In this document: positions 7,197 to 34,255 of the stretch, piece by piece
Layout: every line of letters begins with the position of its first letter
Position numbering within the stretch: the first letter of the stretch is position 1
Virus record (IMG/VR): IMGVR_UViG_3300014656_000011
Location: 1-38,812 of that record
Origin: a virus
Lineage: Duplodnaviria; Caudoviricetes
Direction: 5' to 3' (one strand)
DNA length: 38,812 bases
Translations under genes and position numbers: made by a program
The notes under the pieces: generated by a model
What the model was told of the DNA's origin: nothing
The model's database searches: none
What the model saw: only the letters and a program-made list of their open reading frames with translations

Positions 7197-7808
7197 TTAT
7201 TTTAATTTATTTTCTATTGATTTAATAATTTCTTCTCCTTTTGCTAAACCTATTTTAAACTTCTCGTGTAACTCTAAATCTTGTTCTACTAATTGCCATA
7301 TAACCGGTTCTTTCATATCTGAATTACCTACAGCATACCAACCTTTCTTTTTCTCCATAATCATCATTTGGTATTGTATTTGGTCATAATACTGTCCTTC
7401 AATTTCAAATGTTCCTGTTTCTTTAAATTCTGCTAAAAGTTTTAAATATTTTACTTTACCAAAACTTTTAACTTCGACAGTTTCTTCTTCTGTGTAACTA
7501 TCAGGACTTGCTCCAGCCAGTTTATATTTATTGTTTGTTACAAAACCAGCCTTTTTTAATTCAATACCAGATTGTAACTCAAAAGAATTAAGTATAAGTG
7601 CTTCTTGTTCGTTACCTCTTTTCATTGCTTCGCTTTCAAAATTATCTCTAACATTTGAAAGTCTTTCTGCAACAGATTGCCAACATAATGTATCTAATCC
7701 AGCTCCTGCTGTTTTAATTGCTGTTGCATTACTAGCTGTGAAAGGGTGTTCATTTCTTATATCAAACCACTCATCGCTTTTTTGCTCAATATCGTGATAT
7801 TTAATCAT
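7197..7808 (-). CDS. YqaJ / lambda-exonuclease family nuclease
   Basis: EQKSDEWFDIR..FTAS, AMKRGNEQE, GASPD, VEVKS, YYDQIQYQM. Confidence 0.9.
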   Translation of the reverse strand: MIKYHDIEQKSDEWFDIRNEHPFTASNATAIKTAGAGLDTLCWQSVAERLSNVRDNFESEAMKRGNEQEALILNSFELQSGIELKKAGFVTNNKYKLAGASPDSYTEEETVEVKSFGKVKYLKLLAEFKETGTFEIEGQYYDQIQYQMMIMEKKKGWYAVGNSDMKEPVIWQLVEQDLELHEKFKIGLAKGEEIIKSIENKLK

Positions 7809-9178: not shown

Positions 9179-9994
9179 TTATCTACCTAATTGAATAAAA
9201 GGTATAGTTGAACCAGGAACAAATTGTGTAGGTAAAACACCATTCCATTTTTTAGCTGATTCTAATGCTGCTTCAGCATAAATTTTATCTATAACCTTTT
9301 CTCCTTGTTGTGAAGCTAAAGCCTGTGCTTCAAGTCTAGTTTTTTCTGAAAGAGCTTGTGCTTTCAAAATTTCTTGGTCTTTTTTCTCTGATTCAGATTT
9401 TGTAATGTTAGCCTGTTTAAGTGCTTCTTGTTCTGCTACTTGTTTTTCTCTAACAGCTGTTTCATAAGCATCATCAAAATCTAAGTTTGTGATTGATACT
9501 TCTTCAACTCTTACACCTCTTACTGATAGTTGTTCTGTTAAAGTTGTTTGAATATCAATTCTTACTTGAGGTCTATTATCTAATAAACCTTGTGCTGTAT
9601 ATTTTGCAATAGTTGATTTTATAACTTCTTTTATAGCAGGTGTAATTATGATACTTTCATAATCTTTCCTTACTTCTGTAAAAACTTGTTTTACAAAAGC
9701 TGGCTCTAAAGAATAATTTAATGTAACTGCTGCATCAACTATTTGTGCATCTTTTGAATATGATAATTCTGAAACTTCATATTTCTTTATCTTAATATCC
9801 ATTTTGTTTACTTTTTGTGCGATTGGAACTCTTATATGTAATCCTTCCTGCATAATTTCATCTTGAACTTTACCCCAAGTTGTAACAACTCCTCTTTCTC
9901 CTGACTCAATCTGAACAAATGGGTTAAATATTAAAATACCAAATAAAATTAATACTACACAAATAATTATTGTGATAAATTTTTTATTACTCAT
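9179..9994 (-). CDS. SPFH / Band 7 / prohibitin-family membrane protein (likely start MSNKK at 9994)
   Basis: N-terminal TM helix, GERGVVTTWGKV, EGLHIRVP, SKDAQ, coiled coil, KWNGVLP. Confidence 0.9.
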   Translation of the reverse strand: MSNKKFITIIICVVLILFGILIFNPFVQIESGERGVVTTWGKVQDEIMQEGLHIRVPIAQKVNKMDIKIKKYEVSELSYSKDAQIVDAAVTLNYSLEPAFVKQVFTEVRKDYESIIITPAIKEVIKSTIAKYTAQGLLDNRPQVRIDIQTTLTEQLSVRGVRVEEVSITNLDFDDAYETAVREKQVAEQEALKQANITKSESEKKDQEILKAQALSEKTRLEAQALASQQGEKVIDKIYAEAALESAKKWNGVLPTQFVPGSTIPFIQLGR

Positions 9995-10124
9995 AGTTTT
10001 TTTACTTAGCCAATATAATGTTTTCAAAGAACCATATATAAAACAAATCTCGCAAGACGATGAAGCGAATTGCGAGATTTATCTAACAGTTGCTTCATCA
10101 ACTGATTTATTTTGTTGTAGCTTA

Positions 10125-28895: not shown

Positions 28896-29093
28896 TTATC
28901 TTTTATAATGTTTTGTTATTGCTGTGTGTTGAATTATTCCGTTTGAGTCATAATCCATAGAAACATTACAATTTGTTAATACATTTATGTTTAGTTGAGT
29001 CATAACTCCTAAGATATGAGCTATTAGTTCATAGTGTTTTTGAAACTCTTTAAACAATAGTGCATCTTCATTTGTTAGTTCTACTTTAATCAT
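28896..29093 (-). CDS. Hypothetical protein
   Basis: 65 aa between TerL and portal. Confidence 0.65.
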   Translation of the reverse strand: MIKVELTNEDALLFKEFQKHYELIAHILGVMTQLNINVLTNCNVSMDYDSNGIIQHTAITKHYKR

Positions 29094-29095
29094 AT

Positions 29096-31414
29096 TTAAA
29101 AGTTTGCTTTAATTCCTAATCTCCCTGCTTGTATAACCCCTGTGCTACTTGAAGCTGTTTCAACTCCTTCCATAAAATTATCTTTTTTATTTATTATTTG
29201 TGCTAGGTCTTCGGAAAACTTATCCATTCCTACAAGTGCATAGATTAAACTCATAAACCAGTGGTCTGCTCCTTTTCTTTTCCATACCCACCTCCAACCA
29301 TATTGTGGGTCGTTCTCATCTTTACCACTAATCTCTTTTACTCTATAAACATTTAAACAATGTTCAAAGAAAGGTTGCCAATCTTCACTACTTCCATTAA
29401 ACATTATTCTTTGTTCATTTAGTTGGTCCACTGCTAACTGTATCGTTCTGTTTCTATCTACTAATACTTTTCCGTGTTCATCATTTTCCCCCCATCTTAT
29501 AAGTTGTTTGCTTTTAGTTTCTTTTACAAACCATACTAGGAATACTCTACCTTTATATTTAGTTTGTAACTTTCTAATTCCAATTAAGTCTCCCCCTTGG
29601 TCAGCTACAAGTATCCAGTTTGGATTTGTGTATAGTAACTTATCTATCTCATCATAAGGGTCATAGTCTGGGTCATTTACTTCTTGAGGACTTTGACAAT
29701 AACCGTGATAGAAGACTCCTTGCTTATTCATTAAAGTATAATATATATCGTGTCCTGTATCTACTCCAATAACTACTCTGTTTTCTTGTGAATTAGTTTC
29801 AGGAGTTAAACACTTTGTTAAGGCTAACGTAGAAAGCTTATCATTTGGGCTTACATAAGGTTCTCCTAACCATTTCTGTTTGTATAGAACAGGTCTTTTT
29901 AACTTATCATCTTCAATCTCTTTTTTAATAACATCAGGAAGAAATCCATACTTCTCTGCTATATCATAGTTAACATTAATGATTAAAGTATTAGGTCTTC
30001 CTTCTTCAACTAACCTTGTGTGAACTGGGTCGCTAACATTTAATCTGTTGTATGTGTAAATAAGTTGTGAGCCTACTTCACGGATTGTTGGGGTTAATAC
30101 TTCTAAACTTTTCTTAGTGATAGTTTGTGCTTCTTCAATCCAAGCTATGTTAATACCTTCAATAGATTTAAGAGATTGTTCATTGTTCCAAAGTCCTTTG
30201 AAGATAAAGTCTGAACCAGTAATCTTATTAGTGATAGTTTTATCTGTAATACTAAAGTCGTTTAGTCCATATTGTTTAATCAAGTCAGATAATAATTGAT
30301 GGGAACTTTCAGCAATAGAGTTTTGGAACTCTCTAAAACAACCTATTCTTATTTTCTTTTCTCTTGCTTTAATTAAAAGAACTCTCGCTACTGTGTGAGA
30401 TTTCATTGAGTTACTAACATTCACTCCATTAGCAAAATAGTTATGATACTTTTCAGTTTCAATACTCCAAACATCTACTGATTCATAGACTTTCTTAACT
30501 CTAATCCTACCTTTCTTGCTTCCTGTGGTGTTTGTTTCTTGTGAGGGTAATCTACCTGTAAGTGTTTCCAAGTTCTCCCACTTAGCAAATCCCTTATCCC
30601 ATCGTAATTCAATCCAGTCTTGTTCTTTAGAAGTTCTGCCATCATTCTTATTGGCATCTTTGGATTTTGTAAGCGAAATTGTAGCAATTCTCTGGCTTCT
30701 TTCTCTGTTATCTTCCTTAAATTCTTTCCCTGTGTAGATTGGTCTGTCCTTAACCCCGTCTTCCAAAGATGAATGGATTGTTCCTGTCTTGTCGCCCACT
30801 CCAAGTTGTTTACTCTGTTGTCTGTTTTTATTCCGTTTTTGTGATTGACTGTTTCCTTTTTCTTCAAGTTCGGAATAAATGTTCTTGCTATTATTCTGTG
30901 TAATACTTGAGACTTTCTTCCTACAACTGTCATTAAATAACCGCTGTGGTTGATTGATGGTTTCATCACTTTTGTTTTGTAACCACCCTTGTAACTCGTT
31001 GTTAGTATCCTCCCCATATTGCTTACATAGTAATTCAAGGGTTCGTTTTTGGCTTGAATCCATAATTCCCCAGACAAGCTGATAGATTGGAATATAGGTT
31101 TTCCCATTAAAGTATTTGTGGTCATAAGTAGTCTTAGTGATAGTTCCATTTATTTCTAATTCAAACATTGGTTTCGGTTCAAAGTTTGCTTCAAAACTAT
31201 CTATACTATTGACTATATCATAATCTCCAACCAAAGACAATACTTTATCCCCCACCACAATATCACTAATTCTTTTAAAAGAACCATCATACATTGAAAT
31301 TATTGTATCGCCATCAAAACAATATCTTCCACCATAAACGGCTGCTTCTCTCCAATCACTGTCAAACAGTCTCTGGTATTCTATTGGTATCTCCATTATT
31401 ATTTGCTGTGTCAT
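29096..31414 (-). CDS. terL: Terminase large subunit (PBSX/SPP1-type ATPase domain) with an intein; 772-aa precursor, 468 aa after splicing
   Basis: Walker A GGRY^SMKSH split by the intein; REFQNSIAES, KSIEG, Walker B AWIEEAQ, PTIR; nuclease VIGVDTG. Confidence 0.95.
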   Translation of the reverse strand: MTQQIIMEIPIEYQRLFDSDWREAAVYGGRYCFDGDTIISMYDGSFKRISDIVVGDKVLSLVGDYDIVNSIDSFEANFEPKPMFELEINGTITKTTYDHKYFNGKTYIPIYQLVWGIMDSSQKRTLELLCKQYGEDTNNELQGWLQNKSDETINQPQRLFNDSCRKKVSSITQNNSKNIYSELEEKGNSQSQKRNKNRQQSKQLGVGDKTGTIHSSLEDGVKDRPIYTGKEFKEDNRERSQRIATISLTKSKDANKNDGRTSKEQDWIELRWDKGFAKWENLETLTGRLPSQETNTTGSKKGRIRVKKVYESVDVWSIETEKYHNYFANGVNVSNSMKSHTVARVLLIKAREKKIRIGCFREFQNSIAESSHQLLSDLIKQYGLNDFSITDKTITNKITGSDFIFKGLWNNEQSLKSIEGINIAWIEEAQTITKKSLEVLTPTIREVGSQLIYTYNRLNVSDPVHTRLVEEGRPNTLIINVNYDIAEKYGFLPDVIKKEIEDDKLKRPVLYKQKWLGEPYVSPNDKLSTLALTKCLTPETNSQENRVVIGVDTGHDIYYTLMNKQGVFYHGYCQSPQEVNDPDYDPYDEIDKLLYTNPNWILVADQGGDLIGIRKLQTKYKGRVFLVWFVKETKSKQLIRWGENDEHGKVLVDRNRTIQLAVDQLNEQRIMFNGSSEDWQPFFEHCLNVYRVKEISGKDENDPQYGWRWVWKRKGADHWFMSLIYALVGMDKFSEDLAQIINKKDNFMEGVETASSSTGVIQAGRLGIKANF
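30410..31321 (-). mobile_element. Intein (304 aa, precursor residues 32-335) in the TerL Walker A motif
   Basis: Block A CFDGDTII, block B TTYDHKYF, blocks F/G VWSIETEKYHNYFANGVNVSN, +1 residue Ser. Confidence 0.92.
30475..31107 (-). CDS. NUMOD4-HNH-HTH homing endonuclease nested in the +1 frame inside the intein (start 31107, or up to 31149)
   Basis: ELW...YYVSNMGRI (NUMOD4), LHRIIARTFIPN...VNHKNGIKTDNRVNNLEWAT (HNH), KITEKEA...GRTWKHL (C-terminal HTH). Confidence 0.9.
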   Translation of the reverse strand: MGKPIFQSISLSGELWIQAKNEPLNYYVSNMGRILTTSYKGGYKTKVMKPSINHSGYLMTVVGRKSQVLHRIIARTFIPNLKKKETVNHKNGIKTDNRVNNLEWATRQEQSIHLWKTGLRTDQSTQGKNLRKITEKEARELLQFRLQNPKMPIRMMAELLKNKTGLNYDGIRDLLSGRTWKHLQVDYPHKKQTPQEARKVGLELRKSMNQ

Positions 31415-31835
31415 CTTTTTTATCTAAGAATTTAACTAGGACAGGAACAACTATATTAATTTTACTATTCTCATCTTGTGAGTATATTCCTTTTATCTTA
31501 TAAGCTGAATCTAAATATTTATGTCTAACAGCATAATCAGGTTCATAACCTACTTCTTCAACTTCTCCTGTTGAATTATTATTTTTAAATATAGTTTTTC
31601 CTGCATTTAATCCTTCTTTATGAACCTTTACTAAGTCTTCATCTGGTATCTGTTCTGCTATTGACATAATAGCTTTTTGTATCTTAGGTTTTGCTAAGTT
31701 TTCAACAGCCATAACACCAGCAACGTTTTCGCTTTTCGTATTATAGTTATTTAGAATAGATTGAGTTCCATTACCAGTCTTTATCCAATCTTTTACAAAA
31801 CCTTTTTCTTTTTTAGATAGTGTTTCTCCTTTCAT
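31362..31835 (-). CDS. terS: Terminase small subunit
   Basis: LSKKEKGFVKDWIKTGNGTQS...A..NLAKPKIQKAI; directly upstream of TerL. Confidence 0.9.
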   Translation of the reverse strand: MKGETLSKKEKGFVKDWIKTGNGTQSILNNYNTKSENVAGVMAVENLAKPKIQKAIMSIAEQIPDEDLVKVHKEGLNAGKTIFKNNNSTGEVEEVGYEPDYAVRHKYLDSAYKIKGIYSQDENSKINIVVPVLVKFLDKKDDTANNNGDTNRIPETV

Positions 31836-31972
31836 TATTTCTTCTTTATCTGTTTAAGTTCTTTAGCTTGTTTTAGTGCTTCTGCTTTTAATCCTTTCTT
31901 TTTAAGTTTAGGAATTATTCTTTTATGTTCCTCCAACATTTCTTTCTTATTTACTTTATATGTTTTTGCCAT
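31835..31972 (-). CDS. Small basic protein (45 aa)
   Basis: MAKTYKVNKKEMLEEHKRIIPKLKKKGLKAEALKQAKELKQIKKK; TAATG-coupled to terS. Confidence 0.6.
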   Translation of the reverse strand: MAKTYKVNKKEMLEEHKRIIPKLKKKGLKAEALKQAKELKQIKKK

Positions 31973-32159
31973 AAATTAATTTCATTAGTGTATATTCTGT
32001 TTCTTTTTCTACAGGGACAGAGTCTAGTAATAGTTTGTATTCTTCTTCATTTTTTCTTAAATTTAGTGATAGCATTCCTTTAGAAGTATTCACAATAGGG
32101 TGTGAGATATATTCTACTTTTAGTAATCTCATTATTTCATTATCTTGTTTTATATTCAT
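31956..32159 (-). CDS. Hypothetical protein
   Basis: 67 aa; ATGA-coupled to the upstream gene. Confidence 0.55.
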   Translation of the reverse strand: MNIKQDNEIMRLLKVEYISHPIVNTSKGMLSLNLRKNEEEYKLLLDSVPVEKETEYTLMKLIYGKNI

Positions 32160-32305
32160 ATTTTTAGTTTTTTAACTGCTCTAAAGCATTTACCACATAT
32201 TTGGCTTTTACTTGTTAATTGTGTGTTTAGTTTTTCATTAAAGAATGTTCTTTTTCTTATAAAAAACTTATTCTTTTTACATTGTGCACATTTACCGTAT
32301 ATCAT
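32156..32305 (-). CDS. Small zinc-finger protein (49 aa)
   Basis: MIYGKCAQCKK...QICGKCFR. Confidence 0.6.
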   Translation of the reverse strand: MIYGKCAQCKKNKFFIRKRTFFNEKLNTQLTSKSQICGKCFRAVKKLKI

Positions 32306-32306
32306 A

Positions 32307-33800
32307 TTAAAAAGGTCTTTTAGCTTGTAATTGCATCATTAATAATTCTTCTTCTGATTTTTTAGGAATACATACGACCACTCCACAGGTTAATATAGTT
32401 CCTGCAAGAGATACTGCATTTCTAACTGCATTTTTTATAACTGCTGATGAGTCTATAACATCTTCATTCCAGTTTGGTTCTTCTATATTCATATTCTTTA
32501 GGTTTTGTATATATGGAGCTTTTAGTGCTTTAGACAATATCTTTCCTGCTTCTGTATCTGGTAATGTATCGGCTACATTTAAAAGACAAACACCACCACC
32601 TTTAACTACTCCGTCCTTTAAAGCTAACATACTTGAATTGATAGCATCTTTTGTCTTTAACCTTATGTAAGATAATTCACTCTCGCTATTTGCTCCTAAT
32701 TTAAGTATAGCTGTTTTTGTCTGTAACCAAGATAATCTTAATTTAGAATCATTATCTTTATTTTCTTTTAATTGTGCTATATGTTCTGAAAAGTCTACAC
32801 TAGGGATTATTATTGTTTCGTCTTTATCTACTGTTATTTTAGCACAAGTTCCCAAATGACTTAATCCTAAGTTCTTAAAGTTTATTCCTGTTGCATCTTC
32901 TACAATAGTTGCTCCTACTACTTTAGAGAAGTCCTCAAATATATAATTTTTAAACAATACAGAAGCTTTGATTATAAGAATATTCATTACTTTATCTTTG
33001 TGAGCTTTAACCATAATAGAAGCTACTTCTGAATCCATATCATCTGTAAATATAACTAAGTCTTTTTTGCCTTGTTTATTTAGTTCTTCTATAAGTGGAT
33101 TTATATCATTTAAATGTCCTATCTTTCTTTTTGTTACTAAAATTGTTGGGTTTTCATATATTGCTTTTGTTTCTGTTTTGTTATCTTTTACTGCTTCTTT
33201 GTCGTGAACCATAGCTGGAGATAGAAAACCACAATCATTAAACTTTACTCCGTTTGTTATAGAGTATGTTGTTTCGTATGTTCCACTTGCTTCTGGGCTA
33301 ATTATTCCTTCTTTTCCTATCTTTTGGTAAATTTCTCCTATAAGATTACCCATTTCTTTGTTTTCTCCTGCTATTGTTGCAATATTGTTTACTTCTTTTT
33401 CTGTTATTGTTTGTTTTACTTTGTCTATTTCTTTTTCTACAACAGGGATTAATAAATCTAATTCTTTTTTAAGTTCCATTCCTGTAAGTTTAGATTTATT
33501 ATTTATTATCTCACTTGTAATAATACAAGTAGTTTTTCTTCCATCTCCTGAATCTTTGTCTTGCTTATCCATTAACTCTTTGATTAGTCCTAAACCTCTC
33601 TTTTGCACTGGTTCTTCTGTTTGTATAGCTTGTATAATAGTTTGAGCATCGTTTGCTATCTCGTGATAAGGGTAGTTTTCGTTTTCTACAATAACATTTA
33701 TTCCTTTAGCCCCATAAGTAGGCTTAATAGGGTCAATCGCAAGATTAACTCCTTCTATTAATAAATCTATTGCTTCTTGTCCTGTTTTTACATTATTCAT
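32307..33800 (-). CDS. groEL: Phage-encoded GroEL-like chaperonin (likely start MNNVKTG at 33800, 497 aa)
   Basis: TYGAKGINVIVE, ANDA, GDGRKTT, YENPTILVT, LKLGANSESEL...KDAINS...GVVKGGG. Confidence 0.9.
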   Translation of the reverse strand: MNNVKTGQEAIDLLIEGVNLAIDPIKPTYGAKGINVIVENENYPYHEIANDAQTIIQAIQTEEPVQKRGLGLIKELMDKQDKDSGDGRKTTCIITSEIINNKSKLTGMELKKELDLLIPVVEKEIDKVKQTITEKEVNNIATIAGENKEMGNLIGEIYQKIGKEGIISPEASGTYETTYSITNGVKFNDCGFLSPAMVHDKEAVKDNKTETKAIYENPTILVTKRKIGHLNDINPLIEELNKQGKKDLVIFTDDMDSEVASIMVKAHKDKVMNILIIKASVLFKNYIFEDFSKVVGATIVEDATGINFKNLGLSHLGTCAKITVDKDETIIIPSVDFSEHIAQLKENKDNDSKLRLSWLQTKTAILKLGANSESELSYIRLKTKDAINSSMLALKDGVVKGGGVCLLNVADTLPDTEAGKILSKALKAPYIQNLKNMNIEEPNWNEDVIDSSAVIKNAVRNAVSLAGTILTCGVVVCIPKKSEEELLMMQLQAKRPF

Positions 33801-34062
33801 AAGGATTATATTTGTATTCGTGATAAAAAAGTGGGTGTTGTGGTGGTAAAGCTTGTCTTCCGTGATACGAAAGATATTCCACATTGTTTACTCTACCGTC
33901 TGATACTTTGAAGAATTGTCTATCTCCACATATTTCGCATACTTCAACAACTCCGTCTATGTATTGTTTTTGTATTTTATATCTATGTAGGTAACTATTT
34001 AGACATATCGATTTTCCCAAGAATAAATCTTGAGTCTTCTGGTATGATGTAGTGTTTTTCAT
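33793..34062 (-). CDS. Zinc-ribbon-like protein between groES and groEL (start uncertain)
   Basis: C....LHRY...VCEICG; stop overlaps the groEL start. Confidence 0.6.
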   Translation of the reverse strand: MKNTTSYQKTQDLFLGKSICLNSYLHRYKIQKQYIDGVVEVCEICGDRQFFKVSDGRVNNVEYLSYHGRQALPPQHPLFYHEYKYNPYE

Positions 34063-34255
34063 CTTTTATGTTTAGTTTATTTATTCCCCATATAGTGTAT
34101 CCAATAATATCTCCTACTTCTACTTTCTCAACCTCATCTCCAATAGCTAGAACTTCTCCATATTCACAAAGTGTTCCTTCTGAACTTTGAAGGATAGTAT
34201 CAGTTACTTGTGGTTTTACTAATATATTATTTCCGAAAGGTGTTATCTTATTCAT
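33995..34255 (-). CDS. groES: GroES-like co-chaperonin
   Basis: ITPFGNNILVKP, GEVLAIG, VEVGDII, YIIPED..ILG. Confidence 0.88.
   Translation of the reverse strand: MNKITPFGNNILVKPQVTDTILQSSEGTLCEYGEVLAIGDEVEKVEVGDIIGYTIWGINKLNIKDEKHYIIPEDSRFILGKIDMSK

Follow-up and report, generated by a model that had tools for sequence, protein, structure and literature searches.

Organisation of the terL locus

The DNA analysed here, called the window throughout, is the complete 38,812-bp virus record IMGVR_UViG_3300014656_000011 of IMG/VR (Duplodnaviria; Caudoviricetes), which has direct terminal repeats at its ends. On its minus strand, a continuous open reading frame (ORF) of 772 aa (31414..29096) encodes the large terminase subunit TerL, with matches to Pfam Terminase_3 (E 1.7e-30) and Hint (E 1.7e-5), and the protein is of the PBSX type (TIGR01547, PBSX-family TerL). 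An intein lies within this ORF, and without it TerL has 31 + 437 = 468 aa. The same DNA, read in the +1 frame, encodes a second protein with the domains of a NUMOD4-HNH endonuclease. The features of the locus and the evidence for each are listed below.

31322..31414, minus strand: TerL N-extein, 31 aa, ending in GGRY, the first half of the Walker A region (ORF list; intein-free relatives)
30410..31321, minus strand: intein, 304 aa, in frame with TerL and without a stop (translation, Pfam Hint, TIGR01443, Foldseek)
31064..31321, minus strand: N-terminal splicing half of the intein (IntN), residues ~1-86 (AlphaFold predicted local distance difference test score, pLDDT, 87-95 over residues 1-100)
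30512..31063, minus strand: filler loop in the intein frame, residues ~87-270, a shadow of the HNH gene and largely predicted disordered (pLDDT; ratio of nonsynonymous to synonymous substitution rates, dN/dS; stop avoidance)
30410..30511, minus strand: C-terminal splicing half of the intein (IntC), residues 271-304, with blocks F and G (pLDDT 86-94, TIGR01443)
29096..30409, minus strand: TerL C-extein, 437 aa, beginning with SMKS (Pfam Terminase_3, TIGR01547)
30475..31149, minus strand: +1-frame ORF for the NUMOD4-HNH endonuclease, 224 aa if begun at the first ATG and 216 aa if begun at 31125, with the TAG at 30477..30475 (Pfam, phmmer, Foldseek, dN/dS)
31123..31149, minus strand: HNH start zone with ATG 31149 and ATG 31125, the latter across the Tyr-Asp codons of block B (TAT GAC CAC) (40/40 family ATGs in the equivalent 11-codon zone)
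30778..30846, minus strand: HNH active-site segment, in which Asn94, His95 and Gln116 (numbered from 31125) align with Asp74, His75 and Asn96 of I-HmuI (alignment)

The nested two-frame arrangement was confirmed as real and is not an assembly error. A contig of depth 137 from run X1 (groundwater metagenome) covers positions 29100-31900 with 0 differences; run X1 is possibly the source sample, so this match is not independent. The intein frame is open in 12 other TerL proteins at 51-70% identity, and the +1 offset is identical in the DNA relatives and in all nested copies of the family described below. Placing the HNH gene in a group I intron would follow the example of I-HmuI, which is itself intron-encoded; an Rfam scan of 29000-32500 gave no intron family at E<=1 and one chance match, and the protein-splicing residues are invariant. 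Two compensating indel errors in an in-frame HNH intein, a possibility that the initial annotation had raised, would produce the observed frames, and in-frame HNH inteins do exist according to the accessible text of bioRxiv 10.1101/2025.01.02.630785. Both versions are already refuted by the homologues, in which the +1 ORF is open at the same offset in every nested copy, and with the identical depth-137 contig we regard their probability as negligible.

The intein and its filler loop

The intein carries Cys1, a block B TxxH motif (Thr65, His68) and Asn304, followed by Ser as the +1 residue, and the intein C-terminus model TIGR01443 matched above its cut-off. C1, D67, H68 and N304 are invariant in 34/34 aligned inteins of the family. 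An AlphaFold model, for which these 34 inteins formed the input alignment, is confident at residues 1-100 and 271-304 and has pLDDT <50 at residues 113-207, 219-235 and 254-270; its best Foldseek matches are Hint/intein domains (probability 1.0, E 5e-4 to 1e-3). The intact splicing blocks and the motif-less middle described in the initial annotation thus correspond to a Hint fold predicted from the two ends, with invariant splicing residues, and to a filler that is largely predicted disordered. As judged from its sequence, the TerL insert is a class 1 intein at the Walker A motif, and splicing is predicted. The layout of a split intein in a fractured gene is not that of the window, where the 772-aa ORF is unbroken, and among the relatives only one, L002, is broken.

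The NUMOD4-HNH ORF in the +1 frame

Pfam matches of the +1-frame ORF to HNH_3 (E 4e-11) and NUMOD4 (E 7e-5) are both above cut-off, and the EndoVII, LAGLIDADG and VSR families are absent among the Pfam matches of the window and the family. Of the NUMOD4-HNH-HTH architecture first assigned to this ORF, the two named domains and the TAG are upheld, while the helix-turn-helix (HTH) match is weak (Pfam E 0.02); C-terminal helices are predicted at residues 141-215 of the HNH model (pLDDT 73-92). The ORF was also said to lie wholly inside the intein. It does, yet it is not confined to the loop and overlaps both splicing halves, starting in or just before block B and extending with its last ~12 codons into the C-terminal splicing segment. 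Neither long form of the ORF that was looked up (from 31149 and from 31107) is present in a collection of 15 billion proteins.

I-HmuI, a group I intron enzyme that nicks DNA, is the sole significant solved-structure match (PDB 1u3e; phmmer E 1.6e-5, Foldseek E 6.4e-7). Both share the NUMOD4 and HNH fold, and His75 of I-HmuI is retained in the window; in contrast, Asp74 is replaced by Asn and Asn96 by Gln, and the C-terminal DNA-binding part differs (TM-score 0.40). The catalytic residues of I-HmuI are given as D74/H75/N96 in the accessible text of PMC12724721.

The length of the open +1 frame exceeds chance, because the same off-frame in 11 other genes of the window meets a stop every 11.5 codons, with a longest open run of 87 codons, and the chance of 195 open codons in that off-frame is P about 2e-8. 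The third frame across the intein region is full of stops.

Selection on the two frames

Selection was analysed in the window's 7-member clade over 174 HNH codons, the window being compared with 6 relatives for dN/dS. Identity is 68-97% in the HNH frame vs 46-88% in the intein frame, with the HNH frame higher in 21/21 clade pairs, and the differences fall mostly at HNH third positions (0.41 vs 0.20 and 0.12). The per-frame dN/dS called for in the initial annotation, estimated by the Nei-Gojobori method without an overlap model and with dS near 1, is 0.10-0.24 for the HNH frame, where purifying selection acts, and 1.5-3.1 for the intein frame.

Stops in the intein frame are avoided. Synonymous T that would make such a stop was seen 0 times in the window vs 17.5 expected (40 sites), and the 37 nested copies have 0 stop-making codons vs 521 expected (1453 sites); the free copy L081 has 14 vs 16.4 expected. 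Since stops are avoided while the intein-frame dN/dS is 1.5-3.1, the filler appears to be selected only to remain open, as would be expected of a segment that is translated but later removed from an essential enzyme by splicing.

Translation of the HNH frame

In 40/40 nested copies, a +1-frame ATG is located at codons -10..0 of the block-B Tyr and no stop occurs before NUMOD4. The ATG across the block-B TAT-GAC is found in 19/40 copies, 8 of which are without an upstream ATG, and each of the 21 copies with TAC at the block-B Tyr has an ATG 7-9 codons upstream. Among representatives (<80% identity), 26/26 have an ATG in the start zone, compared with 17.7 that synonymous resampling predicts for open frames (P about 1e-5), and 11/11 of those without the block-B ATG have an upstream ATG (Fisher p 0.007); the -10..0 zone was picked post hoc, and shared ancestry inflates these P values. 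The HNH start is likely to be 31149 or 31125 instead of 31107, the start first proposed, which is the third ATG of the ORF and has an ATG counterpart in 7/40 family members. Compared with the real starts of the phage, the start contexts rank at the 25th (31149), 3rd (31125) and 10th (31107) percentiles; these low scores suggest weak HNH expression and slightly favour 31149.

The missing Shine-Dalgarno (SD) motif at the HNH start is no objection, because an SD-like motif occurs at 1/42 gene starts of the window, where upstream regions are A-rich. In a phage with almost no SD use, the ATG alone may suffice as a start. Loci with nested elements have little SD excess (24 vs 16 control, 117 genes), in contrast to genome loci with free HNH genes (154 vs 20, 354 genes), a comparison confounded by host lineage. 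A hairpin masking the ATG was discarded, the local folds near the start zone being weak (-2 to -6.5 kcal/mol per 50 nt), and a TTG start in LSGELW was rejected as several members have TTA. For an internal promoter, inspection by eye (no formal scan) revealed no conserved DNA motif in the stretch from PKPM to block B, whose synonymous positions are variable.

Separate translation and +1 frameshifting had both been put forward for the nuclease; the first of the two is the better fit. If ribosomes underwent a programmed +1 shift out of the TerL-intein frame, the product would be an N-extein/IntN/HNH fusion. At intein codon 82, a +1 slip would lead to a same-sense or similar codon (CTT then G or A) in 32/40 copies, the contexts of the HNH ATGs are weak, and in L002 such a shift would yield a single contiguous precursor, a 14-nt deletion having joined the HNH frame to IntC and the C-extein. 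However, the slip codon is missing in 8/40 copies, and the +1 frame is open upstream of codon 82 to the block-B Tyr in 40/40 (against 0.17-0.95 per copy under codon resampling). The start zone always has an ATG, and L081, a free gene, uses the block-B ATG position with overlap of the upstream stop. Because all 40 copies keep a +1-frame ATG within 10 codons of block B, an own start is favoured, and frameshifting is in our estimate improbable.

Identification and distribution of the nested family

A search of viral contigs with the HNH frame found 34 loci: in 28 the HNH lies nested in an intein, in its +1 frame, and in 6 it is free-standing. A second search, with a 23-base pattern taken from the NUMOD4 motif, returned 28 loci from viruses and 32 from metagenomes. 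After removal of duplicates, among them the window's own record, 41 distinct elements including the window were obtained, comprising 40 nested copies and one free copy (L081). Both intein ends are in view in 35 of the 40 nested copies, which form 26 clusters at <80% identity. HNH_3 and NUMOD4 were both matched (E<=0.01) in 36/36 aligned HNH frames. The host genes encode several TerL types, Pif1 and SF2 helicases and an SMC-like ATPase, and insertion is at the P-loop (Walker A) wherever both junctions are visible. The intein-frame signature was also present in 22 of the best 150 profile-search hits, including P0145, P0148, P0150 and P0142, with the insert at P-loops of FtsK-, RecA-, DnaB- and AAA-like hosts; in these carriers we infer a +1 ORF from the signature.

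The HNH tree has 67 rows and left out L005, L055, three cut copies and 49/79 free genome HNHs. In this tree, 35 nested copies and L081 form one main group (support 92/84, which is under the starred level) that does not include L111, subgroups track the host gene, and the window's clade is on a long stem (0.65). The clustering is partly built in, the nested copies having been collected via a family-specific motif.

The DNA pattern of the family had no match in prokaryote genomes, and among the best 80 of 336 prokaryote-genome HNH loci one (L111) is nested in a continuous intein. Among 50,697 cultured-phage records, tblastn with the intein frame found nothing at E 1e-3, and 1954 records were matched by the HNH frame, all at <60% identity, with nesting unchecked for the 30 listed.

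L111 (3694-5832), on a contig binned as Woesearchaeota, is a distant nested copy in TerL whose HNH groups with that of L113, and it is possibly a second origin of nesting. L113 (2-2578) is a primase-helicase-like gene (named from motifs) split inside an intein; a NUMOD4-HNH ORF lies between the two halves and overlaps each of them. This is the layout of fractured genes, here with a NUMOD4-HNH nuclease. In L152 (409-3233), a helicase-like gene with a split intein, the second part has an in-frame HNH-like segment before IntC. The TerL of L026 (2607-6002) has a second intein-like insert near its C-terminus, as seen in the duplicate L028, and the polar middle of this insert may hide another off-frame ORF. 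L155 (1817-3655) encodes a NUMOD4-HNH and DNA-methyltransferase-like protein (named from motifs) in one open frame of 613 aa, for which no intein match was found.

Empty alleles and derivative forms

The insertion site is uninterrupted in 119/120 best C-extein relatives (450-481 aa), from a search that excluded proteins >765 aa, and intein-free relatives read GGR[YF][SG][LM]KS without a break. All of the nearest terL alleles (89-92% identical over 185 aa) are empty, and the next intein carrier ranks 54th. Since one element occurs in unrelated ATPase genes, it must have moved laterally at some time. As for a decoy copy of the target inside the intein, the best matches in 12 elements are 14-17/24 bases, giving no sign of one (no shuffled control).

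Three members of the family, each represented by one contig without a read check, depart from the nested layout. In L005 (3001-3492), the HNH core is deleted from a 164-aa intein in which both frames are open (71-codon remnant), and its sequence indicates decay toward a mini-intein. L002 (1549-3631) has the 14-nt deletion near the intein 3' end; its intein frame stops at 302 aa, and the HNH frame is fused to IntC and the C-extein in a 611-aa open frame. L002 may represent a naturally split intein or a substrate for frameshifting; it may also be a dead allele or an artefact of assembly. L081 (706-1329) is a free-standing family HNH gene directly upstream of an intein-free terL; its ATG, which overlaps the upstream stop, aligns with the block-B ATG, and the old intein frame has 16 stops. 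It is sister to the nested QGGT-terL group (support 99/92). The tree alone leaves the direction unfixed; L081 has probably escaped from an intein, as suggested by its retained N-terminal extension, an off-frame reading of block B.

Neighbouring genes

The other genes considered in the window are the upstream neighbour of terL and two further groups.

31362..31835, minus strand: terminase small subunit (Pfam Terminase_2 E 1.5e-9)

Just upstream of the terminase genes, positions 32307-34255 encode GroEL-like (E 4e-68, below cut-off) and GroES-like (E 8e-5) proteins. A YqaJ-like recombinase and an SPFH/Band 7 protein are encoded at 7197-7808 and 9179-10027.

Comparison with known systems

The initial annotation knew of no description of this architecture; it is already in print for a Brucella phage TerL, actinophage inteins and the cyanobacterial dnaX intein. 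In Brucella phage Tb (GenBank JN939331, ORF07/ORF08), a TerL intein with an out-of-frame HNH was described in 2015 (PMC4422536). As in the window, the intein is contiguous in a phage TerL and the HNH ORF is on the same strand with a +1 offset, which we computed from an HNH start minus TerL start of 823 nt. Unlike that of the window, the Tb HNH is a Cys-rich PF01844 without NUMOD4, its similarity to the window HNH is not significant (E 0.08), and the Tb intein sits after GNRAD instead of at Walker A. The accessible text of the Tb paper has no analysis of frame selection or of the start codon.

Non-canonical inteins of actinobacteriophages were reported by Gosselin, Arsenault and Gogarten (bioRxiv 10.1101/2025.01.02.630785). 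According to the text available, they share with the window a nuclease in a separate frame, an unstructured in-frame middle and often a location in TerL, and the authors propose that they originated when a free nuclease invaded an intein, with an indel shift into frame predicted. The nucleases that lie out of frame there are endonuclease VII-like (frame 3) or, in antisense, LAGLIDADG or VSR-like, whereas the HNH type is in frame, and the term 'NUMOD' is absent from the main text. The cyanobacterial dnaX intein of Phillips, DeSimone and Gogarten (bioRxiv 10.64898/2026.09.14.751524), as far as its accessible text goes, is similar in its overlapping '+2 ORF' nuclease, its disordered in-frame loop and its dN/dS, which is <1 for the nuclease frame and >1 for that of the intein; empty alleles and mini-intein alleles occur side by side. 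That system has a LAGLIDADG enzyme, one cellular host gene and putative SD motifs upstream, in contrast to the window's family with its NUMOD4-HNH enzyme, SD-poor phages, many P-loop genes and start in block B.

Fractured genes with split inteins (Dassa et al., PMC2677866) also have, in the portion available, overlapping frames and a separately encoded nuclease that is placed between, or over, segments of the host gene, but there the intein frame is broken in two, whereas that of the window is continuous and complete. The hidden HNH of ShiLan (Arsenault et al., PMC11855218) is out of frame like that of the window but, as presented in the accessible text, has no splicing domain. In the literature searched, we found no intein with an out-of-frame NUMOD4-HNH, although one could be described in bioRxiv supplements or subscription papers. 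The general two-frame layout is known, and by the features tested the insert in terL is an intein with an out-of-frame putative homing nuclease. What this family adds is the NUMOD4-HNH nuclease, a start zone at block B, its distribution across many P-loop genes and three forms of exit.

Proposed mechanism and alternatives

We consider it probable that the intein and an I-HmuI-like +1 nuclease with its own ATG act together, the nuclease driving homing into empty terL alleles. The intein would splice itself and the filler loop out of TerL, and the nuclease would be translated independently, and probably weakly, from its own ATG at intein block B. The nuclease would then cleave or nick the empty Walker A site of an intein-free terL, and the cut allele would copy the insert in, with homing during co-infection. 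As to its origin, a free NUMOD4-HNH gene likely entered a mini-intein at the usual endonuclease position, an insertion that could be tolerated because synonymous changes can clear every stop from the intein frame; the joint intein-nuclease element probably spread afterwards among P-loop genes. The two-part mobile element first proposed from the window agrees with the predicted Hint domain and its disordered loop, the I-HmuI-like +1 nuclease under purifying selection and the many empty terL alleles.

Certain points weigh against homing by an active pair. The penultimate intein residue is Ser303 throughout the window's clade instead of the usual His, which is present in many other family members; a penultimate His is common in class 1 inteins and not obligatory. 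The size limit of the C-extein search biases it toward empty alleles. A quick extein tree needs 5 gains/losses, of which well-supported branches force only 2, and no near-identical intein was found in clearly different exteins. The post hoc choice of the start zone, the low start-context ranks and the simple dN/dS estimate given above count on the same side.

The catalytic Asn also belongs here. Asn96 of I-HmuI is replaced by Gln in 7/7 members of the window's clade, a change absent from the other 29/36 aligned HNH frames, and the HNH protein of this clade might be made but non-cutting, retained as a DNA-binding protein or slowly decaying. The long clade stem in the HNH tree and the deletion derivative L005 elsewhere in the family would agree with this. 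Nevertheless, His95, Asn94, Asn103 and the NLEW motif are retained, the HNH-frame dN/dS is 0.10-0.24, Gln is an amide like Asn and fixed across the clade, and intein carriers are interspersed among empty alleles, so that we think loss of cutting unlikely. A role of the HNH protein as a packaging accessory of the terminase, instead of as a homing enzyme, is more improbable still. Lying within terL it would be co-expressed, and for brucellaphages a link to packaging was suggested for an HNH overlapping terL (PMC4422536, accessible text). The same element is nevertheless present in helicase and SMC-like genes, and the closest terL alleles are without the insert, HNH genes elsewhere in those phages being unchecked. 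The HNH is moreover I-HmuI-like, while the packaging role is assigned to the GVE2-like class in the available text of PMC12724721.

Beyond homing into empty terL alleles, the family might hold a whole life cycle, a proposal that we put forward tentatively and that is open to considerable doubt. A nuclease started at a block-B ATG would have had its C-terminal half retargeted between the Walker A motifs of unrelated ATPases, with three exits, namely deletion toward a mini-intein (L005), a 14-nt deletion yielding a split intein in which the nuclease is fused to IntC and TerL is trans-spliced from two frames of one DNA (L002), and escape as a free gene that retains an N-terminus derived from block B (L081). 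The deletion, fusion and free forms match steps of nuclease gain and loss proposed in the accessible texts of Gosselin et al. and Dassa et al.

As the layout is already published, the surprise is limited. The family extends it to I-HmuI-type enzymes and many P-loop ATPases. The accessible text of the ShiLan paper (PMC11855218) leaves open how hidden HNH genes are translated, and the block-B ATG zone in SD-poor phages is a testable answer to that question. Inteins that appear degenerate or carry only a filler loop may be fully armed mobile elements, the nuclease of which is missed by one-frame gene calling.

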